DNA of 63,806 bases, counting the filler, from Welwitschia mirabilis (lineage: Eukaryota): NCBI GenBank assembly GCA_051453625.1. It is 8 parts of one record of this genome, joined end to end, with 100 filler letters (N's around TTAATTAATTAA, not from the genome) between each part and the next. Parts side by side here need not be neighbours in the genome. Positions count along the whole stretch, not along the records: positions 10,201 to 30,110 come from JBOZIK010000001.1; 7 more parts are not named here. One strand, given 5' to 3'. The notes beneath the pieces were generated by a model. It saw only the letters and a program-made list of their open reading frames with translations, was not told where the DNA came from and did not search any database. Below, in pieces: positions 10,101-63,806 of this stretch. Each line of letters opens with the position of its first letter. Position 1 is the first letter of the stretch. Position numbers and translations under genes: made by a program.

Positions 10101-10200
10101 NNNNNNNNNNNNNNNNNNNNNNNNNNNNNNNNNNNNNNNNNNNNTTAATTAATTAANNNNNNNNNNNNNNNNNNNNNNNNNNNNNNNNNNNNNNNNNNNN
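10101..10200. other. Scaffolding linker gap (44 N + TTAATTAATTAA + 44 N); also at 30111, 40655, 45862, 54791, 56690 and 62148
   Basis: An identical 12-mer with stops in all six frames is centred in 100-bp gaps; this is an assembly artefact. Confidence 0.95.
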
Positions 10201-13200
10201 AGATCCATTTTCTTGCTCTAATATGCCTATTTATAGATGCAGTGATAGAGAGTTTGTTATTCGTTCTTTTGCACCACCTATCTAGTTGTTATAGCCACTT
10301 TCCCTTTCTGTAGGATAGCTTCACTTAACTGACATGCATCACAAATTTAGATGATAATAATCTATAATGTATTATAATAATGTCATAATATATTACTCAA
10401 CATATTCTTCATTAATTTAGTAAGAACACAGCATAAATGTACATCCATTTCTAGGTCATCACTTATTTATAGATAACCTTATCTAAGTTCTATATTTTAC
10501 GTACACATTTTTTTAATAGAATTTAATTTTGAACGAGAGGAGGAGTAGTATAATACTCAAAAGCCAAGTGTTTAAGAGCTTGGTGAGGAAGTTGCTAGCA
10601 TGCAATGTGAAACTCACATCATTTTCTCTTTGTTGTTATGTAACTAGTTACTTCAGTGGGGGTTTGTAAATAATCCCAAATCAATCATCCTCTACTATAT
10701 CTAATGGTGGTGATGTAAAAAAAACAAAAGGTGAAAATGGCTTTAGACTTCATGCATATACAAAATGCAAAAGAGACAAATGAGAACAGTAATAATTTAG
10801 AGGAAATTTTTCAAATGACAAACGTGTGATCATAAACTTGGAATTTCGTTAAAATATTTTTGTAAAAATGGTAAACACATTTGAATAACTATATATGATA
10901 AGAACTTTTACTTAAAAATTCCTTTTACCTCTGCCTTAAATAACTAGATATAGAAAGAAGGTTTATGAGGCTAAAGATGTGGAATCTAGGATTTTAGAAG
11001 TGTCGAGATCAGTAGGGGTGGTTTTGATCTGGGAGCTGTAGCACACAGGGGGGCAGTGTTGGCTAGGTTTTAGACACTCAAGAAGTTTTATTCTTACTTT
11101 AAAGTTGCTTCAAAGTAGATTCTAAGGTGGGGCTTTAGCCATTAATATGAAGATAACATAGTTCTATAGGGAAAGGAAAACCCCCTTTTTGGACATAGAT
11201 GAAGATGCGTGTCTAGAAATAGAGAAGAAAATTCAATATAGCTTGAGAGATAAATTCATTTCATTAGGCCCTAGGCCTAGATTAGATCTCATCAGGGAAT
11301 GAATAGCCACCAAGTGGAGTTAGTAAAGTATGGGTTATTACCCTGCTAGAAGGCTTGGTCCTTTTTCATCTTAATAATGAACATGAAAGAAACAAAGATA
11401 TTACTAGAGGATTATGGTTCTTTAGAATAAGAAGACAAGAACTAGCTAAATGAACATAAGGATGCAAGTGGACCTGCATTTGTTTAAGAAATTACCCATT
11501 TGGATTTGAATACATAGATTCCTCCTTGAGTTCTAAGATGAAGATCTTCTAAAGAGAATCACTTCTCAATTTGAAAAACTAATTAAACTAAATAGTATTG
11601 CCATTAAACAAAATAGACTATTTCTAGTAAGATTTTGCATCTATCTTAGCCTTGAAGAAACCAAAGGGATTCAACCTATTAAGTTTAGTCCAAATGAGGA
11701 ATGTACAAGTTAGAAATTACCTACAAGAACCTCCTAGATGTGAGACATGTGAAAAGATTAAATACAAATCAAGGAAATATGTTAGAATAGAAAAAAATGC
11801 ATATACTATGGGAAAAAAGGCCATGAAAAGGATGAATGTAGGAAGAGATAAAGAGAAATTGATCATGAGCGGAAAGAAACTTACTCCTTCTATGGAAAAT
11901 CAGAACACAGACAAAGTGAGTGTTGGCATAAATAGAAAAGAGAGAAAATGGTCAAGAATACAATAACATATCCTAAGTAAAATAAAGACAAAGAAAACTA
12001 TAAGGACAATCCATTCTAGCACCTATCAGAAGAGGAGGGAGACATCCCCTAATTTAAGAAATAAGTAAACAAAGATGAGTTAAATGATGTTGAAACTCAC
12101 ACAAAATGTAGATCCAGTAATAGAGTGTTATGAAATAGGAAAATGGTAGAAAATATGGCAAATAGTTCCCAGGCAACAATCAAAGAAAAAACATCAAGGG
12201 GCACCCAAAAAGTAATAAAAATAGACCTAACGGAGTGCCTCTTTTGGAACTATAGGGGTTTAGGGTCCTCCTATAAAAAGAAGACTTTAAGAGATCTAAT
12301 TAGGAAGTATAACATAAATTTAGTTTGCTAACAAGAGATGAAGATATACAATAACATGATATTAGGTAATTTCTAGTAGCAATGGAATAAATTTACCTTG
12401 GCAGCACAAGGAAACTCAAAGAAATGATCACACTCATGAAAAAGTAGTCAAATTTAATCTATAGTAGGAAATACCATTTAACAATCTACCTCAAAGAAAA
12501 AGGATAGTCTATTACAAACATGTATATTTCACAAAACAACAAAAGAATCAATGCTACTATAACTACAGAGCTTAGTTATAAATAAAGCTAAATAACTAGT
12601 TATGAGGGATTTTAACCAATGCCTTCATAGATGGGAAAAAAATAGTGGGCGAAAACTAGAACAGCAAGGGAGCTGAGATCCTTAGAGACTTCATGGTGCA
12701 AGGGGATCTTTTAGATATTCTAATCATAAGACATAAATTCACATGATCTAATAGAAGAACTAGAGGTAATCAATTTATGTCCAGAATTGACATAATTCTG
12801 ACCAAGAAAGAAATAACTAAGATGACTGTTAAAGCATGGGGCCTAAACAGAATAGCTTATGATCATAGATCAATCAGATTCAGAATTGATATGGTAATAC
12901 CCCTTAGATCCCCCTTTAAAATGGATAGATCTTGGCTCTTAAGGGAAGAAACTAAGAGGGTATTTAAAAAGATTTGGGATCAATATGATGGTACCCTATC
13001 AATTACCTTTTTATAGATGGGTTTAAACACTCTCAAGACTTAAGGGATGGAGATAGAAGGAGAGAGAAAGGTTAAATTTAATAAGAAGCTAGAGTAAGAA
13101 TTAAGGGAGATTCAAGTAGAGTAGAAACGTGGAGTAGACCAGGATAGTATTCGCACAAAGCAATATACATGCCTTTTAAAATTACAAGAAATAAACTTAG

Positions 13201-16200
13201 ATGAAGAGCATTACTGAAGGGAAAGGTCTAGAATTAAGTGCTACAAGAAGGGGACAAGCATACTAAATTTATATTCTAATAGAATAATCAACACTAGATA
13301 AATAATAGAATCAAGAAGCTCATAATCAATAAACAAGTGATTAAAGATGATAAGGACATTACTGTAGAAATGAAGATCCATCTCAAAAACATATGGAATG
13401 GGAAGATATCATCCTTGAACTAATTTAGATAGATAAGAAAATTTGTAATGAGGATAATGCAAGCCTAAACAAGTCAATAGGCAAGAAAGAAGTACAAGTA
13501 GTAATTCAATTAATGAAGAATAACAAAGCCCTTGGGCCAAACAGGTGACTAGTAGAATTATTCAAGTCTCATTTATCCCTCATAAGAGATATCCTTCATG
13601 ACATTAAATAAGAAATCTTCACCAACAAGCACATTCCGATAGAGATTGACAAGACTCAAGTACTTGTAATATTTTGTACAAAATCTTTGTAAACAAATCA
13701 TAGGACTATAAACCCTTAGGTATTTGAAATATTCTATACAAAATCTTCATAAAAATAATGGTAGGTTGTATTACCTCCTACCTCCCAAGGTGATCTCTGT
13801 GAATCAAGTTGGCTTTATCTAATCTAGGTACATTTAAGATCAAATCCTTCTAACTCAAAAAATTATTCATTCTATCAAAAAACATAAATTTCCTTTACTT
13901 CTTGCTAAATTNNNNNNNNNNNNNNNNNNNNNNNNNNNNNNNNNNNNNNNNNNNNNNNNNNNNNNNNNNNNNNNNNNNNNNNNNNNNNNNNNNNNNNNNN
14001 NNNNNNNNNNNGGTACATTTAAGATCAAATCCTTCTAACTCACAAAATTATTCATTCTGTCAAAAAACATAAATTTCCTTTACTTCTTGCTAAATTAGAC
14101 ATAGAAAAGGCCTATGATTATGTGATCTAGAAAGCCTTCAGTTCTATCTTAAAGAAAACTAGCTTTAACTTTGATAACACTAACATCTGGTGAAACATGC
14201 AAGCTTTACCCAACTTCATCATAGAGGTTAATAGCTATAGATCTAAAGTTTTCTTAGTAGGCCACAGATTAAGGTAGGNNNNNNNNNNNNNNNNNNNNNN
14301 NNNNNNNNNNNNNNNNNNNNNNNNNNNNNAAATTCTCAAAAGGAATAGATTCTCAGGGATTAAAATAGAAAGCTAAATGTTCATTAATAATCACTACACA
14401 GATGATATAAACATCATAATTCAAGGCTCCTATCAATAGGCAAAAGCCACTAAAAACACTATAAACCTCTTTGCTAAGGCCACAGAACTCTGGACTAACT
14501 AGAATAATTCTAAAATACATATCCTTGACAAAAGCATTAGGAAGAGGAGTGATATTGCTAGAATCTTAGATGCTAAGATGGGGAATCTATAAGACATCTA
14601 TCTATGAATTCTGCTTAGAAATTAGCATAAGTCCCTAACTTGGAACCTTATCTTAGAGAATATTCAAAGGAAATTCAATACTTGATTCTTTCAAAAGTCA
14701 AGATTATCTCAGTAAATACCTAACTAATTTCTTTTTCAGGAATTTAGCCTCCATTGTTCCCCTCCCCCTTTCTTTTGTCAAGTTTATNNNNNNNNNNNNN
14801 NNNNNNNNNNNNNNNNNNNNNNNNNNNNNNNNNNNNNNNNNNNNNNNNNNNNNNNNNNNNNNNNNNNNNNNNNNNNNNNNNNNNNNNTGATATCACTAAC
14901 ATCTCGTGAAACATGCAAGCTTTACCCAACTTCAGCATAGAGGTTAATAGCTATAGATCTGAAGTTTTCTTAGTAGGTCACAGATTAAGGTAGGAGAACC
15001 CTTTATCCCCTTATCTCTTTCTATTTGTTATGAATTTTTTATAGGAAATGCTCAAAAGGAATAGAGTCTCAGGGATTGAAATAGAAAGCTAAATGTTCAT
15101 TAATAATCACAACATAGATGATATATTCCTCATGATTCAAGCCTCCTATCAATAGGCAAAAGCCACTAAAAACACTATAAACCTCTTTGCTAAGGCCACA
15201 GAACTTGGGACTAACTAGAATAAGTCTAGAATACATATCCTTGACAAAAGCATCAGGAAGAGGAGTGATATTGCTAGAATCTTAGATGCTAAGATGGGGG
15301 ATCTATAAGACATCTATCTATGAATTCTCCTCAGAAATTGGCATAAGTCCCTAACTTGGAACCTTATCTTGGAGAATATTCAAAGGAAATTTAATACTTG
15401 ATTCTTTCAAAAGTCAAGATTATCTCAGTAAATACCTATCTAATTGCTTTTTCAGGAATTTAGCCTCCATTGTTCCCCTCCCCCTTTCTTTTGTCAAGTT
15501 TATTATTAAAAAAATCAACAAAATGCTAAGGGAGTTCATCTAGTCTAAAAAAAAGGACAAAAGTTGCATTCATCTCTATAATGAAATCTTCTTGCTTGTC
15601 CTAAGGATGCAAGATGTTAAGGAATTCATAAACTAGAAGAGTGCTTACTCAAGTGACCTCACAAAATCATAAGGAAACTACTTATAGAAGGACAACCTTA
15701 GAGTAAACTAATCAATTATAAATACTCATACTAGACTACAAATGTAGAGGAGTATTATATTTGGAAGCATCTATCAAAATCCAAACGAGATTTAATCGAG
15801 CTAAATACACTTACTAATGACATAGCTAAATATATACTAATTAAGAAATATGGTAAAGATGAAGTTAATAGATGATTCTAGTGGGGGTAGATCCTTGATA
15901 AGATTAAGATCTTCTACTAGCTCAAAGGTCATTATAGACTATTAATAAGAGACTAGTTAATCAAACATGGCATCTAAGTTTCCTCTACATGTCTGATTTG
16001 CTAGTCAAATCAAGAAGATATTTACCATCTCTTCCATTACTGTAAGTGAAGAACAGACTTAATGGAATTCATAATAACTTATTACAAGACTAAATAGGAA
16101 ACTAAAAGGTAGATACTGAATGGGATTTGCCTGAAATTTTGGTAGATTTAGTGTACCTGCAATGATCTAATTTTTAGTAATACCCCTTCCTCTTCCCTAT

Positions 16201-16523
16201 TAATATAACAAGAAGAATTTGGTGGTATNNNNNNNNNNNNNNNNNNNNNNNNNNNNNNNNNNNNNNNNNNNNNNNNNNNNNNNNNNNNNNNNNNNNNNNN
16301 NNNNNNNNNNNNNNNNNNNNNNNNNNNNTAGGAAACTACAAGGTAGATACTGGATGGGATTTGCCTGAAAATTTGGTAGATTTAGTGTACCCGCAATGAT
16401 CTAATTTTTAGTAATACCCCTTTCTCTTCCCTATTAATATAACAAGAAGAATTTTGTGGTATCACTTGTAAATTAGATGGCAATGGGATTACTCTGATGT
16501 ATGAACCAATAAATCTAAGCCTT

Positions 16524-16965
16524 TTTTAGGGATGCTCGGCTCTATGGGATAAGGTGCAGCACCTAGGATAGGAATACCTACTATAAAAACTAAAGGGGAA
16601 GACTGATTATGATATTACTCCATTTTAGAGATGATGAAAAGCAGATATAACTACCTTTAAAAGAATTTCAATTGAAGTTAGTGAGGAATCTTTGGCCTAT
16701 CTTTGAAAAATTTTCTTAATTACAAAGGGTAAAGAGTGGCCTTCCATTTATTCTTAGGAGGCATTCCTAAACTTTCCAGTGGCCACATAAGTAAAAAAGC
16801 ACTTCCACCTCCTATGGCTTAGAGGCTAAGTTAGTGGACAAATACTTTAATTAGTCAGGCTAATGCTTGAAGCTATCCAATTTGCACTTTATTTTTCTTA
16901 AGGCCCCAGACCAAGGGAATCATGTTAACTTGCCTTAATTTTTCATTCAAATGTTGAGAAAGAAG
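16524..16965 (+). pseudogene. PMD/Transposase_32-like accessory domain in LINE copy A
   Basis: GCSALWDKVQHLG*EYLL*KLKG...ITPF*R...ISIEVSEESLA...HISKKALPPP...KLVDKYFN*SG*CLKLSNLHFIFLKA...VNLP*FFIQML aligns collinearly with copy B 41626-42132. Confidence 0.65.
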
Positions 16966-17461
16966 GATAATACCTAGCACTTTAAACTTATAATGGCTCT
17001 TTGGAGAGGTAGGAGGGACTCTAAGGTGAGTAGGGAGGCTCCCTCCTCTTTCCCACACTGTAGGATAATGACTAAGGCCCAATAGCCAAAGGGGGAAAAA
17101 AGAAAACTAAAAATGACAAAGTTCTCAAGAAGAGTAACAGAATGAGCTGGGTGTTTTACAACCTCAGAGGAAGATGACTTCGCTTCTATCTGAGGAAATT
17201 CATGAATAGGTAGAATCGATTCCACCTCCCCATGAAGATTATATGATAAAATAAAAGGAGGAGCAGGTCTAGCTTGAGCAGGATCAAGAGAAAATCCCTT
17301 ATAAGAAGTTAGAAAGCTCAGAGTCTAGTAAGGAGACAAAGTTATAAAACCAAATAAATTCCAATATAGAGAGAGAAAATTAGACTGTACAAAAAAACAT
17401 TGATATCGAGCAAGCAATGAGGGAGGCTTTGCATGTTACAATTTGAGGGATGAAGAGATGC

Positions 17462-17681
17462 TCCTTCCTGATCCTTAGCATCATTCACAGAGCTTATCTA
17501 AGTATCATCAAATTGAGCTTTTAGAAGAAGGCATTTGAAACTTCATCCTAATAAGAATAAAGTAGGAGCAAAGAAGTTTAAAGAGGTGAACCAGGCCTTT
17601 GAGGCCCTGATGGATGAAATGGGTTAGCTTCTGATCAAGTGCCACCATACTCACTTATTCCCAAGTTGTAGGGGATATTAA
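17462..17681 (+). pseudogene. DnaJ J-domain at the 3' end of LINE copy A (stops, 1-nt frameshift)
   Basis: SFLILSIIHRAYLSIIKLSF*KKA / LKLHPNKNKVGAKKFKEVNQAFEALMD...LFPSCRGY* matches J-domain helix II, the HPD loop (here HPN, one G>A change) and helix III. Confidence 0.8.
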
Positions 17682-18229
17682 TCTGTCATTTTCTCCTAGT
17701 TTCATCTCAGTTTTTCCTAATTCTATTGTTAATCACATTAGTAATAGGATTGAGACCTGTCCATCTAATTTTTGCTATTAATGCCTTTTGTTTTCATTCT
17801 AGTATTGTCCACGATATTACTCTGTGGATTTGTTATGTTATAGTCACATTTCCTTGTACTTCCTTACAAATGGGTGCTTTCATCCCATTATCTATAATTA
17901 CTACTTTCTAATATAAATTTGATTTTACTATTTTAAAAAGAAAAAAAAAGGAAATAACTAATTTGGTCAAGAAACAACCAATTTGAAATGTCTTTGGGAT
18001 TAACTTGATCATGTAGCTATGGAATGAAGACATGGATTTAGAGAAAGTGATTTAAAACCCCATTCCACTTTAGATTAAATCTTTAAGTTTTCCTATCTAT
18101 TTTTAACCACTATGAATGTTCTATCTATTTAAATTGAATATTTTTCCCTTTTTTTTAATTATAAGTAAGTAAGCTTTTGTGTCATATGATTGTCTAGCAA
18201 CACTTGGGATTATAACATAAGGATGCAAC

Positions 18230-18315
18230 ACAATATTCTCAAACCTACCAACATGGAGGCTTGAACTCTAAACCTCTAGGTCCATACGTCCATGATCTTA
18301 TCACTAAAGTAAGCA
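18230..18315 (-). mobile_element. Possible degenerate tRNA-derived SINE head
   Basis: On the minus strand, an A-box-like tactttagtga lies about 35 nt before a B-box-like gagttcaagcc. Confidence 0.3.
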
Positions 18316-27712: not shown

Positions 27713-30700
27713 CTATCACTATCAATCTGCATTCGTAAGATTTGCCTTGTTGGTCCATGGTCTTTCATGGCAAATTTCTTGCCTATTTCAGCCTTCAAGT
27801 ATTTTATTTTATTGCTGTCATTTCCTTTAAACAACATCTCATTAACATACTATGAAAGAACACAAAATTTGCCTCTTAAATCACCTGAAACATAAATGCA
27901 ATTGTCGAAATTGCTTTTAATGTATTGCTACTTCTTTGTGAAAACATGAAACTTGTTGTACCACTGCCTGGGAGCTTGTTTCAGCCCATACAAACTCCTG
28001 TTTAACTTGCAGAGCAAATCTGGTTTTCTTTTATTAATGAAACCTTTAGTCTGTTGCATTTAAATTGCTCAATTTAGGTTCCCCTGTAAGAATGCTGTTT
28101 TAACATCTACTGGTTCTAGTTCTAAATTCATATAAGCAATTAGTGATAAAACAATTCTAATAGAAAAATGCTTTACAACAAGTGAGAATATTTCTGTAAA
28201 ATTAATACCAGCATTTTGTTCATGGCCCTTCACAACCAGCCTAGGTTTGTATATTTTTGTGCCATTAGAATCTGTTTTCAGCTGGAAAACTATCTATTTT
28301 TCAATGCCTTTCTCCCCTTTGGAAGGGGCACCCAGTCCCATTTATGGTTATCATTCAGGGACTTCCATTTTTCCTTCATTGCTGCCTCCATTTCTCCACG
28401 TTAGGGGAAGTTTTAACTTCTGCAAATGTTGTAGGTTCTCCACAATCAGTAAGCAAAACATAATTCAAAGATGGAGAACACCTATCCGGTTGCTTTGTTA
28501 ACCTGGTGGACCTTCTCACCTAATGTTGCTTGTTCACTTGTTCTTCATCTTTAGCCTCTTGCTCATCATGTTCACCTTCAATCTGTTCACCTTCAATCTG
28601 TTCATCCTCATTTTGAGACATGTCTTTAGCTTTTTTTCTNNNNNNNNNNNNNNNNNNNNNNNNNNNNNNNNNNNNNNNNNNNNNNNNNNNNNNNNNNNNN
28701 NNNNNNNNNNNNNNNNNNNNNNNNNNNNNNNNNNNNNNNNNNNNNNNNNNNNNNNNNNNNNNNNNNNNNNNNNNNNNNNNNNNNNNNNNNNNNNNNNNNN
28801 NNNNNNNNNNNNNNNNNNNNNNNNNNNNNNNNNNNNNNNNNNNNNNNNNNNNNNNNNNNNNNNNNNNNNNNNNNNNNNNNNNNNNNNNNNNNNNNNNNNN
28901 NNNNNNNNNNNNNNNNNNNNNNNNNNNNNNNNNNNNNNNNNNNNNNNNNNNNNNNNNNNNNNNNNNNNNNNNNNNNNNNNNNNNNNNNNNNNNNNNNNNN
29001 NNNNNNNNNNNNNNNNNNNNNNNNNNNNNNNNNNNNNNNNNNNNNNNNNNNNNNNNNNNNNNNNNNNNNNNNNNNNNNNNNNNNNNNNNNNNNNNNNNNN
29101 NNNNNNNNNNNNNNNNNNNNNNNNNNNNNNNNNNNNNNNNNNNNNNNNNNNNNNNNNNNNNNNNNNNNNNNNNNNNNNNNNNNNNNNNNNNNNNNNNNNN
29201 NNNNNNNNNNNNNNNNNNNNNNNNNNNNNNNNNNNNNNNNNNNNNNNNNNNNNNNNNNNNNNNNNNNNNNNNNNNNNNNNNNNNNNNNNNNNNNNNNNNN
29301 NNNNNNNNNNNNNNNNNNNNNNNNNNNNNNNNNNNNNNNNNNNNNNNNNNNNNNNNNNNNNNNNNNNNNNNNNNNNNNNNNNNNNNNNNNNNNNNNNNNN
29401 NNNNNNNNNNNNNNNNNNNNNNNNNNCCTTTTAAAATTTACTCTACGTGACTTTCCAACTTCACAATCTTTATAGAATTCAAAGCAAGAAATAGGGATTT
29501 AGACTATAGTACCTTCAAACCCGATTGACTAATGTGTCTTAGCCACCTATGCCACAAGCTTGAATATGTTGTAACAGTTGTAGCCCCTTCTTACTTCCTA
29601 ATAGCAGCAACATGCAAGGTGTGCATGGAATCTTCCTTGGTTCCTTTCAAAACAGTCATAGCACCTTTGCTGATTTTCTAGGTACCTCCAGAAAAAGAGA
29701 GCCTACAACCCAACTTATCAAACTGTTCTACAACTAGTAAATTTTTGGTTATTTTTAGAACATGTCTAACATTTTTGATAATGATGTATTGTCCATCTTC
29801 TTGCTTTGACCCAGTCAGTGATGAAAATGTCGACAATTAGTTTATGTCGGCCGTCTGTAAAAGTCGTGTTGGGGAGACCTGTCGCCATGTCAGCGCAAAA
29901 TGTCTGCAATTGTTTTTATTTAAAAATTAATGGAAATTTGTTATTCACAGGATTTAAAAGCAACATATAGTTAAAAAAGCTAAAATAAGCAATTCAAATA
30001 TTCATTTAATGTGAATAGATAACTAGCAACTGATTCTCACATAGCCACATGGAAAGCAAAAGCTCTGAAAGCATTAAAATTTAAAAATTATAGTAAACAT
30101 TGTTCATTTCNNNNNNNNNNNNNNNNNNNNNNNNNNNNNNNNNNNNNNNNNNNNTTAATTAATTAANNNNNNNNNNNNNNNNNNNNNNNNNNNNNNNNNN
30201 NNNNNNNNNNATTTACTGTTGAGTCATTAAAAGATCCTTGTGAAGGTTTTGGGCCTTACTACGCATTTAGGTCAAAATTGTGACCTAAAATACTCACTGT
30301 GCGTTTTCTCTGCCAATGATCCAGCTCTAGTGCTCGAGTCTCCAGCAGTCCAGTGTGATTTCAAAGAGTGTGTTTTCTACTCTCGATCTCTCCAACAATC
30401 TAGCACACCAGTGTTTCTCTGCCTTCCATGATCTTCACCTTCGTGCTTCTCTATTCATGTGTGCTTCTCTCCAGTCTCCCACGTTTCTATGTTTTTCCCC
30501 TTTTGTGCGCTTTCCTTTTATGCAATAAAAGATTGGAAAATGTTGGCGACAGATTGAACAAAAATCGCGACTTTTACCAGATTTTTGCGTGGCGACTTGT
30601 CGCTGACATTTTGAATTTGTCAGCTCAAAATGTTGCCATGACAACGATTTTTTGGCGGTGTGAGGCGACATGTTGCCTAATAAAAAACAGAGGACCCAAT

Positions 30701-32174: not shown

Positions 32175-34814
32175 GATTGCAGGGACATTTGTGAAAAAAT
32201 GATTTTGCCTAATTTATTGATTTCATAAGTCTTGCTTTTGAAAAACAATTTAAGGTAAGTAAACATTATTTACCCACAAAGTTTATTCCTTGTAGGCACG
32301 CATTACCTAGCAGTAATGTGATCCATGGAAACTCTGTTCTGTATGATAGCGATTTGAAGAAATAATACTGAAAAGCAGTGATATGTTGTGACTTGCCAGC
32401 AGTACAAAAAGTAATTCCAGATTTTATGTTACAAAGACTGCAAGGTGCATGCTCACATGCAAACTTCTAGATGCAAGTGATTTTAGAATGAGAAGCAGAA
32501 ATTTGGGGGAGGCTTTGATTCCCCTTCCTACATGAGAGGATCATCATGTATTAACTGCGAGTGGTTGTTCCTCAGGTGCATAGTCCACAAGGTCTGAAAG
32601 GTTCTTCTGATACATTGAGATAAATCATTTATATGTCTCTGCAGTCTGTGTTGGGAAGCCTGTCTCGGATATTAGTCATGAAACACATGGGAGTATAGAT
32701 TTTTGACATTCCAGTGGCTGTTGAAAGGGGGTTCCTCCTCATCTGACTCGTTCATTTGTTAACAAGGCTACAGAGGATCTCTAAGGGTTTATCAACAGGA
32801 CTTAGGAAGTTTAGGAATGACTTTCTGTTGAGTATTCTCTGACAGCATTGGTAGAATCTTTGATAAATTTGTGATTACGCACAGGGTATGACTGCATGTG
32901 ACCATTCTTTTTGGGCCATTGGTTTTATAAGGTGGGGCTAAAGTGTATTCCATTGGAAGTCTTAGCATTTTGCAATGGAGCAATCAATGTTCTACCGGCT
33001 TTCCAAGGAAATTCTCCTGCCTTGAGGCTTTTGACATAAATTTATCTGTTCACCTGTGCATGTTTTCATTTCTTTCTTTTCATAGTAATCAAATTTATGT
33101 GAATAAGAATTAATGAACAACAATTGATCCTGCGTAAATAATAAACTTATTTAGTTGTTTTTTTTCTTATGGCATGCTTCCTTCAGGGCTTTCTACTTAC
33201 CTTTTCATGGAACTTCTATTAGCGCCTTGATGTACATGCAATTAGTTGTCAGTTTTCTTAAAATGTGTTTTTTCTATCAATGCTGCACTCAAAGCTTCCT
33301 TCCTCACTTACTCACTCAACAGATTTTCCAAAATGTTGTTTGACCTAAATTTGGCAGATGTCATTGACTTGATTTAATGAATTGTTTGTTCCTTATCATC
33401 ATGTAGAGAACTCAATTAAAACAATGCTTCAGTCTCAAATTCATTTCTTGAGTTTTGTCTCCCATAAAAAACTGGATACCTACTGTTTAGGTACTTAAAT
33501 TCATCTTTAAAGTTAAGAATGAACAAGAGCCTTTAGGAGGAATCAAACAATTTGCTATTTATTACTTTTTTGTGGTGGGTCACAGGATACTGACCTCTTA
33601 CGGCTTGCAACAGACTCAAACCATCTGCCTGTTTTTTCAAACATAACTGCACAGAGAACTGAAAAACAATACATAAGTTTTTTTCCCCTCATCAAGCTCC
33701 TTCAAGTAAATGATTTCCGCTATAAATAATATCTATAAATATCTTGTTTAATTTTCACATCCATTAATTGTTTTACCTGTCGTAGTGTTAAGATTGTAAA
33801 CAGCTCAACAATTAACATACAAAGTATTGACTGCTTTGATTTTAAAATTTGAAAAGATGCATTGTCAATACAGGGCAGAACAACTAATGCTTTCATGTGT
33901 CATTATCATTTAATCTCCCATCCCTTTTAAACCATATTTTTGACTTCAACTTTTAATAAGTGCAAAAACTTGCTGCTTGTCTTTTCCTCATGCCATGACT
34001 GTGGTTACATGTAAGTTGCTCTCTCAAGATGGGATTTGGATGATCTGACCCAGTCTGTGATACATCCGCTTGTCTAAACTGTTCAACTCGCCATACAGTG
34101 CACCTTTCTGAGAGAATGTAAGTACATCACAGTCTGCGTGTGCTGTCTTAACTAGAGTTGACACAGTTGGGAGAGGCATGGTGTAGTACTGGCTCTAATT
34201 TCAATCAATATCTATGTTATGGATATCCTTAAATCCCATAAACATTAACAACTATTTAATATTGATTGTGATATGGTACACAAATTCCTTAGATTCTTCT
34301 ATTCATGAGTTGGAGAGTCACATTAGTAGCCTCATGTTCGGATGTGAATGATTTTGTTGAGCTTGGAAGTTTTGTATGTTTAAGAGCACCTACATTCACC
34401 AATTTGTCTATGGCCTTGCCCTTTTTCCAGCTCCCGTACTTTAACTATAGTCATCGCAGTAGTGACAGCTAGTGACAGCTCTATCCTTCAATGCCAATTT
34501 GATAAATTGCTTATGATCATGTTTTTTAACCACTGTGAAACGTGATTGTATAATCCTTTCTCTTGCCACAATTTTGACATTTTATGTTTTATTTTCTTTG
34601 CATTCACGCTTGACATCTTCTGTCCTTCGAGCTGGGCATTGCTAGTCATTAATCTTTTATGATGCTGTTATCAATTTTTTAATAAGCATGAAGGATTTTG
34701 TTGTGTATACACATGTTCAAGTAATTGAAATTGTCTCTAGCTTTTCTTTGGTGTATAGTTATTTGTTACATTCCTTGTATACTTTCTTATTGCCCGGTTT
34801 GGTTTAACATGCAG

Positions 34815-35868
34815 GTGGAAAGGATACAAGCGACAAAAAAATATTGGTTGACATGTTATTTTGGGCAGTTGACAATCCAGCACCAGCAAACTATATGCTA
34901 ATTTCAGGGGACCGTGATTTTTCTAATGCACTTCATCAGCTCCGATTGAGGAGATATAATATCTTGTTGGCAAGGCCTCCTCAACATGTGTCCCCACCTC
35001 TTATCGGTGCAGCACAAAAGGTTTTGCTTTGGGGAAACTTAGCAAGGGGTGAACCAGCTTTACAACTGTCATCTGCTGGTAATCATTCAAGTGAGAAAAT
35101 ATCAAAGGCTAGCTCTTCAATTGAAATTGGTGGAGGAGACACAAAAGAGATTATTAGACGTACACATTCAGAACCAAATCCACTTTCTTTCTCTTACCAT
35201 CCAACACATTCAAACAATTTTGAGAAAATGGCAGAAGAAAAGCAATCAGAAACTACTTGTGCTTTCGAGCATTATTCTACCAACAATTCTGTTACTTATG
35301 ATCAGAGAAATTATGTGGCTGCAAATAATCACCTTCAATCTAACGCTCAACCTTTTGCCATGGATGGCTTGTCTCGTGCCAGTATAATTGAAACAAGAGA
35401 TAAAATGGCTGCTGATTCTATGAAGCAGATGCCATATACTCATCCAAATCAGAAACTTAATCATTTTGAACCACACTACTCAATGCCAAATCAATTTCTA
35501 TCTCAGGAAAAAAGCATCAATAGCTATGATTCTCATTTAGGTATCACATTACAGGCTTTAGAATTCCTGAGGGAAAATCAGCTATCACCAACTGAAGAAA
35601 ATATCAGAGATTGCATTCATTATGGAAACCTGTGTAGTTCAGCATTCGATATTCACTATCTTTTGGAAACTGCCATTGAGAAAAAGCAGATATTGATTCT
35701 GAGGGTTGGGGGAGCGTCCCGTTTATTCATTAAACCAAATACTCAACTATGGAAATGTGTGGACCCTTTCAATATGTACGATAACTACCCAAGGGCAGCA
35801 TGGGATGGATTTGAAAATTTTTTGGCAAGTTCTGAAGGGCATAATTTATTTGCGAGATCTGAGAAACG
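34815..35868 (+). CDS. NYN-domain endoribonuclease, coding exon 2
   Basis: Acceptor TGCAG at 34814 joins in frame to give HVPSG-GKDTSDKKILVDMLFWAVDNPAPANYMLISGDRDFSNALHQLRLRRYNILLA. Open to the donor CG|GTAAGT at 35868/35869. Confidence 0.95.
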
Positions 35869-35960
35869 GTAAGTTGATAGTATTTTCTTCTCTATATTTG
35901 TCTTCTTAATTTTCGCAGAGTTCAAAACGCTTCAAAAACACGTTTGCCTTTGGTGAACAG

Positions 35961-40637: not shown

Positions 40638-40972
40638 TTCTGCCACTTGAAGACNNNNNNNNNNNNNNNNNNNNNNNNNNNNNNNNNNNNNNNNNNNNTT
40701 AATTAATTAANNNNNNNNNNNNNNNNNNNNNNNNNNNNNNNNNNNNNNNNNNNNAGTAAAGGTATTTTGTTAATTATTCAGGAGAGGACTATGAAATAGA
40801 ATAAAAATTGGGGTGAAACCACCCCTGAGGAAATAGACTAAATACAAGGGACTGCCTATTTAGAAGAGTAAAAGCATAGAACTACTAATAAGCTAGAGGC
40901 AAAAATGCCCTACACTACCAGAAGTTACATAATGCTTAAGTTTGAAAAGAAAAAGACCTAGGAGGAAGAGAA

Positions 40973-41190
40973 TTAGAGTCCTCTATAGAATGGAAACAAA
41001 TCACCATGATTGTGGTTGAGCAAGAAATAACCCATATCATTAGAGAGTATCTCAACCTCCTTGAATTCTTTAGCACCTGCTAGATTTTTATCTGGATGAA
41101 ATCTGAGGGCTGTCTTTCTATAGATGGACTTGATAGCTTGAGTAGGGCTCTGTGAAAGAGTCCTAATGTGATAAATGGATATCTCTTTAG
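40973..41190 (-). pseudogene. DnaJ J-domain at the 3' end of LINE copy B
   Basis: YPFITLGLFHRA / AIKSIYRKTALRFHPDKNLAGAKEFKEV-EILSNDMG...LFPFYRGL*: intact HPD motif, a frameshift after helix I and a small deletion in helix III. Confidence 0.85.
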
Positions 41191-41625
41191 ACCTTAAATT
41201 GTTCTCAACATAACTTCCCATCGAGCAACATTCATGTGAATGTCCTCTTGAGGGTGAGGTTGAATTTCTACTAAAGAAGAATCTAAGGTATAGTTCTAAG
41301 TAGGGATGGGGCTCGTTACGAGCTAAGGATAGGTCTAGTAATGCCTACCTTACTCTTAGGAGTTAGGGGCAGGAATTTTTGAATTAGCTCTTAAGCTGTC
41401 CCATGGATAGGCTCCTAAGCTATCTCCTGTTGGGTTGGGAGCAAAAACATCTCCTCTAAATAATGAACTAGGGATTCCTTCTATAATGGCTCTTCTTTTG
41501 GAGGCCCTCCTTGGAGGAGTCTAATATGGATGTAATTGGAGAGGAGGCAGAGGGGCCTCTTTTACCCTGATTTCTTGGGCTACTCTCCACAGAGCTAGAA
41601 CTAAATCCAAATGCCTTGAGGAATA

Positions 41626-42132
41626 TTTCCTTTAAAGAGATTAGATAACAAAGAATGGAAAATTCACCTAACACCCTAGGTCAAGGGCTTTAAGAAAAGG
41701 AAAATAAATACCTAAAAGTTTAGAGTAATTCCCAGACTGAATGATATAGTGGTTAACTAACTTTATGCCTAATCCTCATGGGGGTGGTAGCATCTTTCTA
41801 CTAATGTGCCTTCTTGGAAATTTAGAAGCCCAATTAGGGAAGAAGTGAAGCACTTCACATTACTCTCAGCTTCCAAACTGAATACATTCTCCTTCTGTAG
41901 GAATCTTCAACACCCTAGAGAGGGAATCTTTAGTGATCTCTATAGGGATTCTTCTGAATGTTATGCACCTGTCTTTCCATCATCTATAAAAGGGGGCGAT
42001 ATCAACCCTGTGATCTCCCCTAAGCTTGTGCAGGAGGGGTTCCCATCCCATAGCTTGCACTTTTTCCCACAAGACAGGGCAACCTTCAAAGAGGTCAGGG
42101 TCAAAAGTCTTGATTGTAGGCATGGCTTCCAT
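41626..42132 (-). pseudogene. PMD/Transposase_32-like accessory domain in LINE copy B, in the same frame as the post-zf-RVT motif
   Basis: MEAMPTIKTFDPDLFEGCPVLWEKVQAMGWEPLLHKLRGDHRVDIAPFYR*WKDRCITFRRIPIEITKDSLSRVLKIPTEGE...HISRKMLPPP*GLGIKLVNHYIIQSGNYSKLLGIYFPFLKAL...VNFPFFVI*SL. Confidence 0.7.
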
Positions 42133-45100
42133 TGTGAGTTAGATTTGGAAATGTTAGTATTTCATCTTCTTTATAGTATTTAAAGGTAAAGGTAAGGATA
42201 CATTATTAAAAATCAGATCATTTTTAATTCTTTAAATCTACCAAAACATCAAGCAGATCCTATCCGTTAATTGTGTATCAAGGGTGTTGCAGGTCTGATG
42301 ATACTTCTTCATAATGAAGATTAATTATTTAATTCAAGTGTAATGATGAAATAAATACTATGCTATTTTAGGACTTAATTGGCAGATGGGATAGTTTATG
42401 TCCAGTTGAAATCCTCTTTTGAGTAATTGGTCTCTAGTTAAGATTCTATGGTGGTCCTTTAACTAATAAAAGACTTTAGTTTTTTTCGGAATTTGACCTT
42501 TCTATACTTATTGTAGGAGTCATCTTTTACATATTTCTTTAAGAAAAGCTATTNNNNNNNNNNNNNNNNNNNNNNNNNNNNNNNNNNNNNNNNNNNNNNN
42601 NNNNNNNNNNNNNNNNNNNNNNNNNNNNNNNNNNNNNNNNNNNNNNNNNNNNNNNNNNNNNNNNNNNNNNNNNNNNNNNNNNNNNNNNNNNNNNNNNNNN
42701 NNNNNNNNNNNNNNNNNNNNNNNNNNNNNNNNNNNNNNNNNNNNNNNNNNNNNNNNNNNNNNNNNNNNNNNNNNNNNNNNNNNTGGGTAATAATCTCTTA
42801 TTTTTAGAGATAAATTTGGTGATGATCTTTTTCTTCTTAATCATATAAACTCCTTTAAGATCTTATTAATTTTTTGGATAATATTTCTTAGGGGAAGTAA
42901 TAATGGAAGCTATGTAACATAAATAAGAAATTAAACAAGAGTTTATGAGGATGATTTTAGTTTTGAATAAGAGAAATTTTTTCTGCCAAGAGTTCTGCTA
43001 CCTTTGAATAAACTTAATGATGTAATTTTAAGTAACGGTCTTATGCCAGTTTCACAGGGGAATTCTAAGGTATATATCCTAAAGGTCTCCTAATTTTGCA
43101 TTAGGATTTAGATGATTTTGCCCTCTCTAATAAATTTTTTGTCCAAAGTGTGGATTCTTGACTTATTCTAGTTGGTCTATAAACCTATAACTACTATAAA
43201 AAGTTTCATAGAATTTTTTATTGCTTTTTTTTTATTGGCATGAAGCCCTGGTTATGATGATGGTATTATCTANNNNNNNNNNNNNNNNNNNNNNNNNNNN
43301 NNNNNNNNNNNNNNNNNNNNNNNNNNNNNNNNNNNNNNNNNNNNNNNNNNNNNNNNNNNNNNNNNNNNNNNNNNNNNNNNNNNNNNNNNNNNNNNNNNNN
43401 NNNNNNNNNNNNNNNNNNNNNNNNNNNNNNNNNNNNNNNNNNNNNNNNNNNNNNNNNNNNNNNNNNNNNNNNNNNNNNNNNNNNNNNNNNNNNNNNNNNN
43501 NNNNNNNNNNNNNNNNNNNNNNNNNNNNNNNNNNNNNNNNNNNNNNNNNNNNNNNNNNNNNNNNNNNNNNNNNNNNNNNNNNNNNNNNNNNNNNNNNNNN
43601 NNNNNNNNNNNNNNNNNNNNNNNNNNNNNNNNNNNNNNNNNNNNNNNNNNNNNNNNNNNNNNNNNNNNNNNNNNNNNNNNNNNNNNNNNNNNNNNNNNNN
43701 NNNNNNNNNNNNNNNNNNNNNNNNNNNNNNNNNNNNNNNNNNNNNNNNNNNNNNNNNNNNNNNNNNNNNNNNNNNNNNNNNNNNNNNNNNNNNNNNNNNN
43801 NNNNNNNNNNNNNNNNNNNNNNNNNNNNNNNNNNNNNNNNNNNNNNNNNNNNNNNNNNNNNNNNNNNNNNNNNNNNNNNNNNNNNNNNNNNNNNNNNNNN
43901 NNNNNNNNNNNNNNNNNNNNNNNNNNNNNNNNNNNNNNNNNNNNNNNNNNNNNNNNNNNNNNNNNNNNNNNNNNNNNNNNNNNNNNNNNNNNNNNNNNNN
44001 NNNNNNNNNNNNNNNNNNNNNNNNNNNNNNNNNNNNNNNNNNNNNNNNNNNNNNNNNNNNNNNNNNNNNNNNNNNNNNNNNNNNNNNNNNNNNNNNNNNN
44101 NNNNNNNNNNNNNNNNNNNNNNNNNNNNNNNNNNNNNNNNNNNNNNNNNNNNNNNNNNNNNNNNNNNNNNNNNNNNNNNNTTTTTTATTGCTTTTTTTTA
44201 TTGGCATGAAGCCCTGGTTATGATGATGGTATTATCTACATAGTGATTGTTGATAAAAGTTTGACCTCCACTTCTAATTCCTGTAACTCCATTTCTTCTT
44301 AAAAAACCTATAAAACATTCATTACAAAGAGAAAAATATATGGGGATAGGGGGTCTCTTTGTCTTACCCCTCTACCTACTAAAAATAAATTTGATTTATG
44401 ATTGTTGATCTCCACACTGAATTCAACTAAAGATTGCATATCTAGCCATAAATTAATAACATCTTGAGGAAAAATAGTTTTTCTAAGGATACATCCTAGT
44501 GCTTGCCAACTAATTAAATCATAAGCTTTAGCAATATATAACTTAGTAATAAGGAGAGGACATTTATATTTTTTTAATAAAATGAATGATTTCATGAGTC
44601 AGGAGGATTTGGTCTTAGATATACCTAGATCAGATAAAGCTGGCTTGGTTTTCTAAAATCACATTTAGAAGCAGGAGGTGATACAACCAACTATGATTTT
44701 TGCAAAAATTCTATGAAGAACATTACATACACCTATGAGCCTAAAATTATCTGATTTGCTAGTGTTCCTTTTCTTAGGGATAAGAANNNNNNNNNNCCTA
44801 GTTCTATTCATTTCCTTAGGGACTCATTTATTATGAAAAACTTCCTGCATCACATCCTAAAGGTCATTCCCTAATATAGAGAAATAAGATTTAAAAGTTT
44901 AATTAACCATCCATCAAGGTCAAGGGCTCTATTATTCTTCATAGATCTTATAGAAGCCAAGACCTCCTTTCTACTTAGAGGTTTAGCAAACATAGAGTTG
45001 TCTTCACTCGAGATTTTCTTAATTTATGGAANNNNNNNNNNNNNNNNNNNNNNNNNNNNNNNNNNNNNNNNNNNNNNNNNNNNNNNNNNNNNNNNNNNNN

Positions 45101-54790: not shown

Positions 54791-54890
54791 NNNNNNNNNN
54801 NNNNNNNNNNNNNNNNNNNNNNNNNNNNNNNNNNTTAATTAATTAANNNNNNNNNNNNNNNNNNNNNNNNNNNNNNNNNNNNNNNNNNNN

Positions 54891-62147: not shown

Positions 62148-63806
62148 NNNNNNNNNNNNNNNNNNNNNNNNNNNNNNNNNNNNNNNNNNNNTTAATTAAT
62201 TAANNNNNNNNNNNNNNNNNNNNNNNNNNNNNNNNNNNNNNNNNNNNAGAAATAAAAAGGTTTTAACCCTTTCTTTATATATGTATAAATAATAATAATT
62301 ATTAAAAAAAAAAGTGTTCCAACTGTTTTAAAATATTAAAAAAATAAAATAAATATTATGAAGGGGAAAGAACATATTATTAAGGGTCTAGTGTAGACAC
62401 CTTCATCGTTTAGGTTAAAATAATAATAATAATAATAATAGTAAAAGAAAAAGACGCATGATGTTGTAGCGATCATTTTGGAAATAGTAAGGAGTCAGCC
62501 ATTATAGAAAGAGCCCACATGTAGTGAACATATGACATTATTTTTAGTAACATATTAGATCTTAACAGTTACTGAATAATGATGACGATGATAATAATAA
62601 TAATAAATAAATAAATAAAAACCCAACTAGATTTTAATAATAATAATTTACAACTAAGCCTCCTTTAATGTGTAACACCTTTATCATGTGGGTGGGAGAA
62701 TCAAACTACCCATCCAATTTTTATTCTTATTTGTCCTTACCCGTTACATCAGTGTTTAATAATGACAAATGAAGAGGCATTATGAAAAGGACACATGTCC
62801 GTGGGAGCATTATGTTCGAGGCCAAAATAAAATGGAGGAGAGATCCGCATGAATTACTATCATCTATTACCTGACATGACCTCGTTCCTATGATTTTAAT
62901 GGCTCCATTACCTTGTGAGTGAATAATAGTGGGCTTGAGGACCATCGCATCTTATTTTGAGAAGCAAAGTCAGGCATAACCTTTTTGGTTATACTTGCTT
63001 GACAAGGGCCCATAAGAGAGATGTTATAGGCATATTTTTACCATCAAGGAATTCCCACCAAAAAAATGACTACTGCCATAGCTATTGAAGGTTATCGAGT
63101 CAAAGACATTCACAAAATGATAATAGCTTTTACACATTCAAGTGCTAAATTTGGGTATGGTATGTACGAAGCAGACTGCGTGTAAATCAACTTAAGGTAA
63201 GGCGCCATGAAATCATCTTGCAAAATTCATATTAGTTATGCTTTCCTTTTCAATCCCCTTATCCAAGGTCAAAAGAGCATAGAAATAAGTTTGTTAACAT
63301 TTTTAGAGGGCATGCATTCTCAGGTCCTCATTTACGTTCTAATTTTTAGGGTTAAAATTCGGATGTCTCATATGTTCTAGCTTAGTTTACCGAATCTCGT
63401 AAATTATCTCTTCAACTCACAGATGAAGAAAGAGTGGATGACGCTGAAGGTTTTTTCTATGTATTTCTTTAAAGTAAAGGACAACAGACTTCTGCATGAT
63501 AATGAGGGTCGCTGGTTGTGCTTGTCATACAAAAGCTTTCCGAGGTTGCGAAGAGTCTTGTACAGATGAGAGAGTGCACTTCTACAGTCAGCTTATGAGG
63601 CTTCTATTGTAAAATGTGTTGTAAAATAAATCTGGTTAATGAATAGTACTTAACATATCTGCAAATATGTTGGTAATACATAGAATGAAAGCAAACATAT
63701 ACATCTATATGACAACATACAATAACCTAAAGTGAGTTCATTTTCAATTTCATATGGGCATAGTAACATTAAAATAGAGCTCTCTCAAATAGAAAATGAA
63801 GTAACT

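Follow-up and report, generated by a model that had tools for sequence, protein, structure and literature searches.

We identified two diverged copies of a LINE in a stretch of Welwitschia mirabilis DNA (hereafter the window, 63,806 nucleotides including filler) that both carry an accessory domain and a J-domain downstream of the reverse transcriptase (RT). Our preferred reading, to which we assign a probability of roughly 60%, is that they belong to a LINE family of L1 type with poly(A) tails in a very AT-rich plant genome, and that the family's coding region extends past the zf-RVT, with a J-domain serving the element through Hsp70. After the zf-RVT, the product would comprise a remote relative of Transposase_32 and ATHILA ORF-1 of ~170–200 aa, a basic linker with little conservation and, at the C-terminus, a J-domain, which would be followed by about 25 residues, a stop codon, a 3' UTR of about 250 nt and poly(A). 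As the sequence-only reading of this DNA had supposed, the literature gave no description of a LINE with this architecture (Repbase and Dfam lie outside that search).

Two decayed copies with one order of parts

Copy A lies on the + strand (10947–17951) and copy B on the - strand (about 40755–46750), and no third copy is present in the window. A tblastn comparison of A with B produced 20 HSPs running from 11162 to 17675 in A and from 46746 down to 40979 in B, in the common order ORF1, RT, zf-RVT, an extra domain of roughly 200 aa, an unconserved linker, a J-domain and a stop codon at the identical aligned place. This order holds in two lineages sharing only 33–78% protein identity. DNA likeness is confined to two short patches of 69–73%, so the copies are not a recent segmental duplication.

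The earlier description of two near-full-length copies in a common order stands for the collinearity from ORF1 to the J-domain, but not for completeness. Both copies are badly decayed, with frame shifts throughout and, in a single frame, 183 stops in A and 122 in B; no intact family copy was seen, which counts against our main reading. Across the window, which is a chain of scaffolds, there are 41 runs of N and 7 linkers. Copy A spans 7005 bases, inflated by 351 N and by three duplications exactly at gaps (Table 1), giving a real length of ~5.9 kb. Since these duplications sit at gaps, the scaffold may combine reads from several family copies. Copy B contains about 2.0 kb of N, is interrupted by one scaffold linker and has its 3' UTR truncated by another, so that its tail is not visible. 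Its 3' limit is as originally placed at about 40755, and at the other end, drawn at about 46995, the protein match to A begins at 46746.

Table 1. Features of LINE copies A and B, in positions of the window.
Feature	Position	Strand	Basis or remark
Candidate 5' target-site duplication of A, AAATAACTA	10938–10946	+	same 9-mer after A-tail at 17952–17960
A presumed 5' UTR	10947–11161	+	between candidate duplication and first protein match to B at 11162
A ORF1 remnant (DUF4283-like region, CCHC zinc-knuckle remnant)	11162–11966	+	Pfam; tblastn to B
A presumed endonuclease remnant	12230–13016	+	position and motifs read in translation
A RT remnant	13435–15542	+	tblastn to B RT; gaps and assembly duplications 1 and 2 add to its length
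A assembly duplication 1	13827–13911 = 14012–14096		at gap
A assembly duplication 2	14172–14787 = 14888–15503		at gap
A zf-RVT	15882–16049	+	PF13966, 34 bits vs cut-off 27.5, E 4.9e-8
A assembly duplication 3	16095–16228 = 16329–16462		at gap
A accessory domain	16482–17050	+	tblastn to B; zf-RVT frame at start; two internal frame shifts
A linker, basic and low-complexity	17051–17450	+	no A–B protein match
A J-domain (HPN for HPD), short C-terminal tail, stop 17679–17681	17455–17681	+	PF00226 at 17517–17618
A 3' UTR and A-rich tail	17682–17951	+	sequence; poly(A)-ending contigs
B ORF1 remnant	45966–46746	-	beyond linker 45862–45961; tblastn to A ORF1
B RT	44311–44781	-	PF00078 (RVT_1), 38.7 bits vs cut-off 29.6, E 1.1e-9
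B zf-RVT region	42199–42498	-	tblastn to A 15885–16184; accessory-domain frame, same N-free contig
B accessory domain	41464–42132	-	single frame, 7 stops; Met start aligned to relatives' start
B J-domain (HPD kept, one internal frame shift), stop 40973–40975	40973–41215	-	PF00226 at 41051–41149
B 3' UTR fragment	40755–40972	-	cut by linker 40655–40754

We scanned both copies against Pfam with stops read as X, and scanned the J segments and the extra domain as short pieces as well. The ORF1 remnants, 45–54% identical by tblastn, matched DUF4283 below its cut-off of 27.2 bits (A, 18.3 bits at about 11423–11641; B, 20.3 bits at about 46280–46468), and RVT_1 in A also scored under its cut-off (18.9 bits, about 15000–15239). 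An endonuclease had been listed in the common order; the region in A gave no Pfam and no PDB match and is presumed from motif reading and position, with 12651–12827 being 41% identical to B by tblastn. The remark that no RNase H is evident held up: three-frame scans of each copy matched no RNase H family at E<=0.01.

The module and J-domain are physically continuous with the end of ORF2. A single N-free contig of B (40755–42553) covers the zf-RVT, accessory domain, J-domain and stop, and one of A, from 16329 onward, covers the end of the ORF2 core, module, J-domain, tail and flank. In both copies, the accessory domain is in the frame of the preceding zf-RVT.

Copy A ends in an A-rich tail at 17951, as first noted. 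The 9-bp repeat flanking it is a weak, unconfirmed candidate for a target-site duplication: a match arose in 754 of 5000 shuffles (~15% chance), and the 9-mer occurs also at 12590 and 12811. The proposed 3' hairpin fared unevenly. The A 3' UTR folded no better than shuffles (z -0.40) and neither it nor the B fragment contains an inverted repeat of at least 8 bases, but the B fragment did fold better (z -3.11, 0/200 shuffles as good).

The accessory domain and the J-domain

The accessory domains of A and B matched each other by tblastn in two segments of A (16353–16712, E 8e-17; 16816–17043, E 5e-11). The domain itself had no Pfam match at E<=10, neither to PMD nor to Transposase_32, the two labels it had been given. 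Searching a protein collection of 1.84 billion entries returned 6 proteins at E<1e-3, and the B domain is 64% identical to P0001, a 91-aa ORF from a transcript (E 1e-29). Comparing the module trio with 11 relatives by hhalign gave 98.5% probability (E 3.9e-15, 159 columns), and two relatives scored on PF20167 themselves (P0007, 40.6 bits; P0004, 25.4 bits). The closest named Atlas clusters, which are leads only, were PF20167 (0.89) and ATHILA ORF-1 (0.88), and a passage of one source calls Transposase_32 related to Athila ORF1 (PMC11728184). These comparisons suggest that the accessory domain is a remote relative of the Transposase_32/ATHILA-ORF1-like group, lying below the Pfam cut-off; part of the original label survives only remotely, by way of relatives that themselves score under that cut-off. 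We rejected PMD identity, as PF10536 matched neither the module nor relatives P0001–P0006 or P0007. A DnaJ match was absent from the scanned relatives P0001–P0007.

The J-domain assignment was borne out. On short pieces from the single copies, PF00226 scored 32.9 bits in A and 29.2 bits in B, both above the cut-off of 27.8; in the whole-copy scans DnaJ scored 25.3 and 22.5 bits. All 20 of the 20 PDB matches of the B segment were J-domains (best 2och_A, E 4e-7), with helix II, HPD and helix III aligned. Copy A reads HPN, as do three RNA reads of a relative, and no majority change appeared at this codon among the family-contig matches listed. In E. coli DnaJ, replacing the Asp of HPD by Asn abolishes the stimulation of Hsp70. 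The HPN in A and some transcribed relatives weakens a simple co-chaperone reading for that subfamily.

Family copies, constraint and competing explanations

To gauge the family, we used contigs of two DNA runs at a likeness of at least 80% (about 2970 contig pieces per run). Summed word depth was 214–2107 over the RT, 122–612 over the zf-RVT stretch, 75–302 over the module, 37–67 in the linker's lowest bins (17054–17281, the two lowest inside the element), 389–798 over the J-domain, above the adjoining linker and UTR, and 6.6–24, or background, in the flank after 17965, past the A-tail; such depth sums do not count copies, and a cut at 80% likeness confounds conservation with abundance. From the two runs, 33 and 35 contigs depart from copy A at 17920 into poly(A). 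The module and J-domain are present in many related genomic copies, with poly(A) following shortly after. No RT–module or RT–J fusion was found in protein collections or metagenome contigs, a weak negative given decayed queries and masked repeats.

In both the module and the J-domain, amino-acid-changing differences between A and B are fewer than silent ones, to the same degree as in the RT. Identity at codon positions 1, 2 and 3 was 0.63, 0.67 and 0.38 for the module and 0.65, 0.73 and 0.46 for the J-domain. Computed as pN/pS, the ratio was 0.44 for the module (bootstrap 0.35–0.55, 173 codons), 0.33 for the J-domain (0.20–0.52, 47 codons), 0.44 for the RT and 0.28 for ORF1, values drawn from codon alignments of protein-level HSPs, which bias toward low pN. 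A control of two near-identical assembly pieces gave 0.70–1.11, with a wide interval. Together, the N-free continuity, the two-run contigs reaching a shared poly(A) end and the RT-like synonymous excess uphold the sequence-only reading's view that the module is a family feature and not a one-off.

We propose that the whole coding sequence of a transposon-derived J-protein gene, including its start codon, was captured at the 3' end of a LINE. Capture would have occurred by read-through or template switching and been tolerated by a poly(A)-recognising L1; recognition of the 3' poly(A) by plant L1s is described in excerpts of PMC3472496. The founder element would then have amplified and split into subfamilies. 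The J-domain, with its HPD in B, would recruit host Hsp70/Hsc70 in cis to the element's protein or RNP and so aid folding, RNP assembly or remodelling, and the Transposase_32-like domain may be the client- or nucleic-acid-binding part.

The same parts and role could instead reside in a separate third ORF, with the module and J-domain translated from their own start codon by reinitiation or from a subgenomic or spliced RNA, rather than as the C-terminus of ORF2p. We consider this a tentative alternative with somewhat less than even odds. A Met occupies the same aligned column in B, in the transcript ORF P0001 and in the stand-alone relatives P0003–P0006, and each copy has stops in the short stretch, roughly 20 codons, that separates the ORF2 core from this Met. 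Those stops differ in place between A and B, however, in copies that have stops everywhere, and at the Met column A reads Asn. Moreover, the module begins in the zf-RVT frame in both copies, and the end of the A J-domain returns to that frame.

That the module is a passenger is unlikely. On this reading, transduction or template switching would have added part of a host or transposon gene to the 3' end of a single founder LINE, and later copies would have carried it as untranslated cargo with no role in the element. Excerpts of PMC3472496 indicate that foreign 3' sequence can ride on poly(A)-recognising plant L1s, and the unconserved linker, the replacement of HPD by HPN in copy A and the three RNA reads, and the lack of an intact copy or predicted fusion protein all fit such an origin. 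At this distance, however, untranslated cargo is expected to diverge past recognition, as the linker has. Third codon positions are near saturation, pN/pS in the module and J-domain is as low as in the RT, the two lineages share the aligned position of the stop, and the J-domain bins are deeper than the adjoining linker and UTR.

Plant J-proteins work with methyl-DNA readers. By analogy with these proteins only, the module might act on chromatin instead of the element's RNP, as a J-protein whose targeting domain derives from a transposon and which counteracts host silencing factors or is mistaken for them. This is the anti-silencing role suggested by the sequence-only reading, an idea we consider improbable. 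The basic linker is compatible with it, as are the Transposase_32/ATHILA ORF-1-like domains borne by transposons (passages of PMC11728184; Atlas leads). Against this, no sequence feature points to chromatin, Pfam detects no reader or binding domain, and fold prediction for the accessory domain was of low confidence (pLDDT 44.4 and 46.5).

Finally, scaffold mis-joins, or two chance events that each nested an unrelated element or gene next to a LINE, are very improbable explanations even with so many N runs and linkers, the duplications at gaps in copy A and a family repetitive enough to invite chimeric assembly, since single N-free contigs span zf-RVT to J-domain in B and ORF2 core end through tail in A, order, frame and stop agree in both diverged copies, and two independent DNA runs both yield contigs across the stretch that end in poly(A) after the J-domain.

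Comparison with known systems

In plant L1-clade LINEs, ORF1 consists of DUF4283 and a CCHC knuckle, and ORF2 consists of an endonuclease, RT and zf-RVT, with RNase H in some, normally ending at the zf-RVT or RNase H. The present family resembles them in its weak DUF4283 ORF1 remnants, RVT_1, zf-RVT, A-rich tail, high copy number and absence of LTRs. It differs in having ~400 further codons past the zf-RVT, encoding the Transposase_32-like domain, linker and J-domain, and in that no RNase H was detected in the present copies.

PF20167 (Transposase_32) and PF03078 (ATHILA ORF-1) proteins occur in plant Ty3-gypsy Athila elements and as stand-alone plant ORFs. The module appears remotely homologous to them over ~160 columns (hhalign 98.5%), relatives score 25–41 bits on PF20167, and the start Met falls at the same aligned column. 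In contrast to those proteins, the module belongs to a non-LTR element, precedes a J-domain and has no Pfam match at E<=10.

The J-domain aligns through helix II, HPD and helix III with those of class A/B Hsp40s (C. elegans dnj-12, yeast Sis1, human DNAJA1 and DNAJB1; E to 4e-7). Whereas the Hsp40 J-domain is N-terminal, that of the LINE is C-terminal, and the LINE copies have no G/F region, zinc-finger domain or C-terminal client-binding domain; copy A also departs in its HPN. Polyomavirus T antigens offer a precedent for a selfish element, here a DNA virus, whose own N-terminal J-domain with HPD uses host Hsc70. This likeness would be one of function only, implying no homology beyond the J fold.

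State of the two LINE copies

The two LINE copies in this window, copy A and copy B, are both heavily decayed, with 183 stops in one frame of copy A and 122 in one frame of copy B. Comparing them by tblastn produced 20 collinear HSPs at 33-78% identity, leading from 11162-17675 in copy A to 46746-40979 in copy B, and at the DNA level (blastn) they resembled each other in two short patches only, at 69-73%. No third copy was found within the window. With stops read as X, a Pfam scan gave 38.7 bits to PF00078 in the RT of copy B (cut-off 29.6) and only 18.9 bits in that of copy A, which aligns to the copy B RT by tblastn. A zf-RVT lies 3' of the RT in copy A (PF13966, 34 bits; cut-off 27.5) and is visible in copy B via homology to copy A only. 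DUF4283 scored 18.3 bits in copy A and 20.3 bits in copy B, both below its cut-off of 27.2, and a CCHC knuckle remnant of ORF1 was read from the translations of the copies. The presumed endonuclease is based on a reading of motifs and a 59-aa match between the copies, the corresponding region of copy B being mostly N; three frames of copy A 12100-13100 yielded no Pfam match to an endonuclease at E ≤ 0.01 and no PDB match at E ≤ 1. Pfam detected no RNase H in either copy, in agreement with the sequence-only reading.

Copy A has an A-rich tail and ends at 17951, and 10947 is a plausible 5' end. We considered a 9-bp repeat at 10938-10946 and 17952-17960 as its target-site duplication and rejected it as not significant, as shuffles matched it in 754 of 5000 cases (15%); the same word occurs twice more in the window. 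A 3' hairpin had also been proposed for copy A. Its 3' UTR folds like shuffled sequence (z -0.40), and this claim was not sustained; the 3' UTR fragment of copy B folds better than shuffles (z -3.11). Neither 3' UTR contains an inverted repeat of at least 8 bases.

As assembled, the window is a draft rich in gaps (41 runs of N), and its GC content is 16-38% per 2 kb; PMC8275611 gives 29.07% for the Welwitschia mirabilis genome. The low GC and the nearest database protein, a Welwitschia mirabilis transcript ORF, suggest a gnetophyte-like gymnosperm as the source. Seven identical six-frame stop linkers (N44-TTAATTAATTAA-N44) indicate that the window strings together scaffolds that were assembled separately. 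One join falls inside copy B and appears correct, because copy B is collinear across it. N makes up about 2.0 kb of copy B, whose 3' UTR is truncated by another linker. In copy A, three duplications flanking gaps look like unmerged overlaps or mixed repeat-family copies; they inflate the element by about 1.1 kb, giving a true length of about 5.9 kb. An identity of 87% for the 616-bp duplication was discarded as an effect of 51 N, the real differences numbering only 28.

Elsewhere in the window, one open stretch of 354 codons, probably a host-gene exon, is the only long coding region observed to be intact. A pol remnant of an LTR retrotransposon (integrase core and Pol beta-barrel) is interrupted by a gap and a scaffold linker.

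Positions of features in the window
Feature	Position	Strand	Detail
Copy A	10947-17951	+	decayed LINE
Copy B	about 40755-46750	-	decayed LINE
J-domain piece, copy A	17517-17618	+	PF00226, 32.9 bits
J-domain piece, copy B	41051-41149	-	PF00226, 29.2 bits
Aligned stop, copy A	17679-17681	+
Aligned stop, copy B	40973-40975	-
A-rich tail, copy A	17935-17951	+
Copy A duplication flanking a 100-N gap	13827-14096		97.6% identity
Copy A duplication flanking a 100-N gap	14172-15503		about 95% identity, N set aside
Copy A duplication flanking a 100-N gap	16095-16462		95.5% identity
Linker constructs	10101-10200, 30111-30210, 40655-40754, 45862-45961 (join inside copy B), 54791-54890, 56690-56789, 62148-62247
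Open 354-codon stretch	34808-35869	+	NYN 52.1 bits, DUF7625 76.3 bits
LTR-retrotransposon pol remnant	55699-56070, 56193-56687	-	rve 63 bits, Pol_BBD 71.6 bits

The J-domain and the accessory module

The J-domain claimed for the 3' end of these elements was borne out: short pieces of both copies pass the PF00226 cut-off of 27.8 bits, and whole-frame scans gave 25.3 bits (copy A) and 22.5 bits (copy B). The match covers profile positions 12-56 of 63. Searching PDB with the copy B piece (phmmer) returned 20 sequences, all 20 of them J-domains, and the best match, dnj-12 (E 4e-7), aligned over helix II, HPD and helix III. About 25 similar residues follow the J-domain in both copies, and then a stop at one aligned place, which points to a common ORF end.

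The tripeptide is HPD in copy B and HPN in copy A, and HPN also occurs in three RNA reads from a relative, all from one run. In the copy A subfamily, HPN may have arisen by decay, through deamination at a site in CHG context; alternatively, it may be a true loss of Hsp70 coupling. Where related contigs from two DNA runs differ from copy A across 14888-18300, C>T (211 and 218) and G>A (214 and 215) predominate. This excess is a signature of methylated-cytosine deamination, a process that would also account for the very low GC.

The accessory module, a stretch of roughly 200 aa between the zf-RVT and the linker that precedes the J-domain, had no Pfam match at E ≤ 10. Of 1.84 billion representatives searched in full with HMMER, only six proteins matched at E < 1e-3, none longer than 593 aa. 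The closest database protein, P0001, is a 91-aa transcript ORF with the source name Welwitschia mirabilis and 64% identity to the module (E 1e-29); a Ginkgo protein (P0002) carries the domain twice, in two stretches that match the module, and the remaining four matches are unnamed ORFs of 144-271 aa with 23-27% identity to it. In the alignment, P0001, P0003 and P0005 all open with Met-Gly at a common column; in P0004 and P0006 the initial Met is followed by another residue. AlphaFold models were too poor for use (pLDDT 44.4 for the module, 46.5 for its relative P0005).

The domain had been called PMD and Transposase_32-like. The first name had to be dropped, as PF10536 matched neither the module (E ≤ 10) nor P0001-P0006 (E ≤ 0.1) nor P0007 (E ≤ 0.01). 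The second held as remote homology: hhalign of a module trio against 11 relatives gave 98.5% probability (E 3.9e-15, 159 columns). It did not hold as PF20167 membership: the module had no match at E ≤ 10, and even P0007, at 40.6 bits, and P0004, at 25.4 bits, fell below the Pfam cut-off of 45 bits. As leads, the named Atlas clusters nearest to P0001, the database ORF that stood in for the module as query, were PF20167 (0.89) and ATHILA ORF-1 (0.88). PMC11728184 describes Transposase_32 as related to Athila ORF1. Judged by profile comparison, the module is a remote relative of the Transposase_32/ATHILA-ORF1 group and not a member by the Pfam rule.

The module and J-domain could form the C-terminus of ORF2 or a separate ORF3 with its own start. 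The module starts in the zf-RVT frame in both copies, and copy A is back in this frame by the end of the J-domain, which fits a C-terminal extension of ORF2. A separate ORF3 is a tentative reading with a substantial minority of the probability. In its favor, copy B, P0001 and the stand-alone relatives P0003-P0006 share a Met start at one aligned column, and the interval from the ORF2 core to this Met contains stops in both copies; against it stand the frame shared with the zf-RVT and the different places of the pre-Met stops in copies A and B. The Met that copy B has in common with these ORFs suggests that a whole coding sequence may have been captured.

Coding constraint and spread through the family

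Codon positions 1, 2 and 3 of copies A and B had identities of 0.63, 0.67 and 0.38 in the module, 0.65, 0.73 and 0.46 in the J-domain, and 0.66, 0.71 and 0.51 in the RT. We calculated pN/pS as Nei-Gojobori proportions, leaving out codons with stops, N or gaps and the first copy of the 616-bp duplicate. As a control, the near-identical duplicate inside copy A gave 0.70-1.11, with wide intervals. The values are conservative in that neutral decay after insertion drives pN/pS towards 1; the codon alignments came from protein-level matches, a bias in the opposite direction. The linker had no tblastn match between the copies at all, as expected for an unconstrained spacer. These codon-level comparisons show coding constraint on the module and J-domain, and it is unlikely that the two are passive cargo.

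pN/pS between copies A and B, and summed word depth, by region; summed word depth is not copy number, and its 80% threshold mixes abundance with conservation
Region	pN/pS	Summed word depth
ORF1	0.28
Endonuclease	0.45
RT	0.44 (bootstrap 0.39-0.51)	214-2107
zf-RVT	0.49	122-612 (zf-RVT stretch)
Module	0.44 (bootstrap 0.35-0.55, 173 codons)	75-302
Lowest linker bins (17054-17281)		37-67
J-domain	0.33 (bootstrap 0.20-0.52, 47 codons)	389-798
3' UTR		98-112
228 bases after tail		6.6-24

Words of 16329-17951 were found in 13 DNA runs from four studies, which fall under two organism labels; no RNA run was among those listed as containing them. We mapped two DNA runs, as Logan contigs, and two RNA runs to 14888-18300 at a likeness of at least 80%; each DNA run contributed about 2970 contig pieces. 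At 17920, 33 and 35 contigs diverge from copy A into T-rich sequence and then poly(A). Upstream of 17540, where copy A shifts frame, 31 and 47 contigs carry a common sequence that reads as the helix-II part of the J-domain, in frame with the tripeptide. The depth profile and the poly(A) exits indicate that the repeated unit contains the module and J-domain and ends just downstream. The proposal that the module is a family feature is thus upheld, with related contigs from both DNA runs covering the module and J-domain to the poly(A) end; we show both the architecture and its spread through the family. About 250 bases past the copy A tail, at 18194-18300, contig depth is back up to 55-92, where another repeat probably starts.

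The RNA runs contributed 64 and 27 reads at a likeness of at least 80%, of which 59 and 23 were less than 90% alike and 64 and 25 overlapped the stretch only in part. So few reads are too little to claim expression of the LINE family.

A proposed capture of a J-protein sequence and its possible role

We conclude that the two copies represent a genuine LINE lineage whose 3' coding module is novel and under selection. Our boldest reading, to which we give a probability of roughly 0.35, is that it would be the first retrotransposon known to carry its own Hsp70 co-chaperone, having captured a complete Athila-type J-protein gene that was then selected through diversification. In the reading that we favor, a poly(A)-recognizing L1 (PMC3472496) would have acquired, at its 3' end, the entire coding sequence of a transposon-derived J-protein. 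The J-domain would bring host Hsp70 to the element's own protein or RNP in cis, and the Transposase_32-like domain would provide client or nucleic-acid binding. The gain to the LINE is likely to be either Hsc70 at the RNP in cis or interference with J-protein-dependent silencing; a chromatin or anti-silencing role is, taken as a rival to the co-chaperone reading, quite improbable. Copy B is free of N over 40755-42553, with zf-RVT, module, J-domain and stop all inside, as is copy A from 16329 on, through the end of the ORF2 core, module, J-domain, tail and flank, and an assembly artefact is barely credible.

The architecture is provisionally regarded as previously undescribed. Searches of the full-text literature turned up no paper on a LINE or other retrotransposon with a J-domain. 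Among proteins, we found no fusions: the module matched none of 359 candidates of 392-2000 aa and the copy B RT none of 47 candidates of 1228-3908 aa. Profile searching among proteins of similar length to the module gave 43 matches, all of 65-306 aa. All of these protein-level negatives, the HMMER pass included, are weak, given the decay of the queries and the usual masking of repeats ahead of gene calling. In metagenome contigs, the module alignment gave 165 pattern matches, none of them confirmed by tblastn.

Repeat libraries and annotators may miscall copies of this family as DnaJ or 'plant transposon protein' genes. The module may help explain the success of LINEs in very large, heavily methylated gymnosperm genomes and, if it was captured as proposed, would amount to an exchange of domains across transposon classes, with an Athila-ORF1-like domain in a non-LTR element. 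LINEs are thought to depend on whichever host chaperones they happen to encounter. A selected J-domain in a LINE, if true, would mean that chaperone recruitment can limit retrotransposition, and HPD versus non-HPD copies would then offer a natural handle on that limitation.
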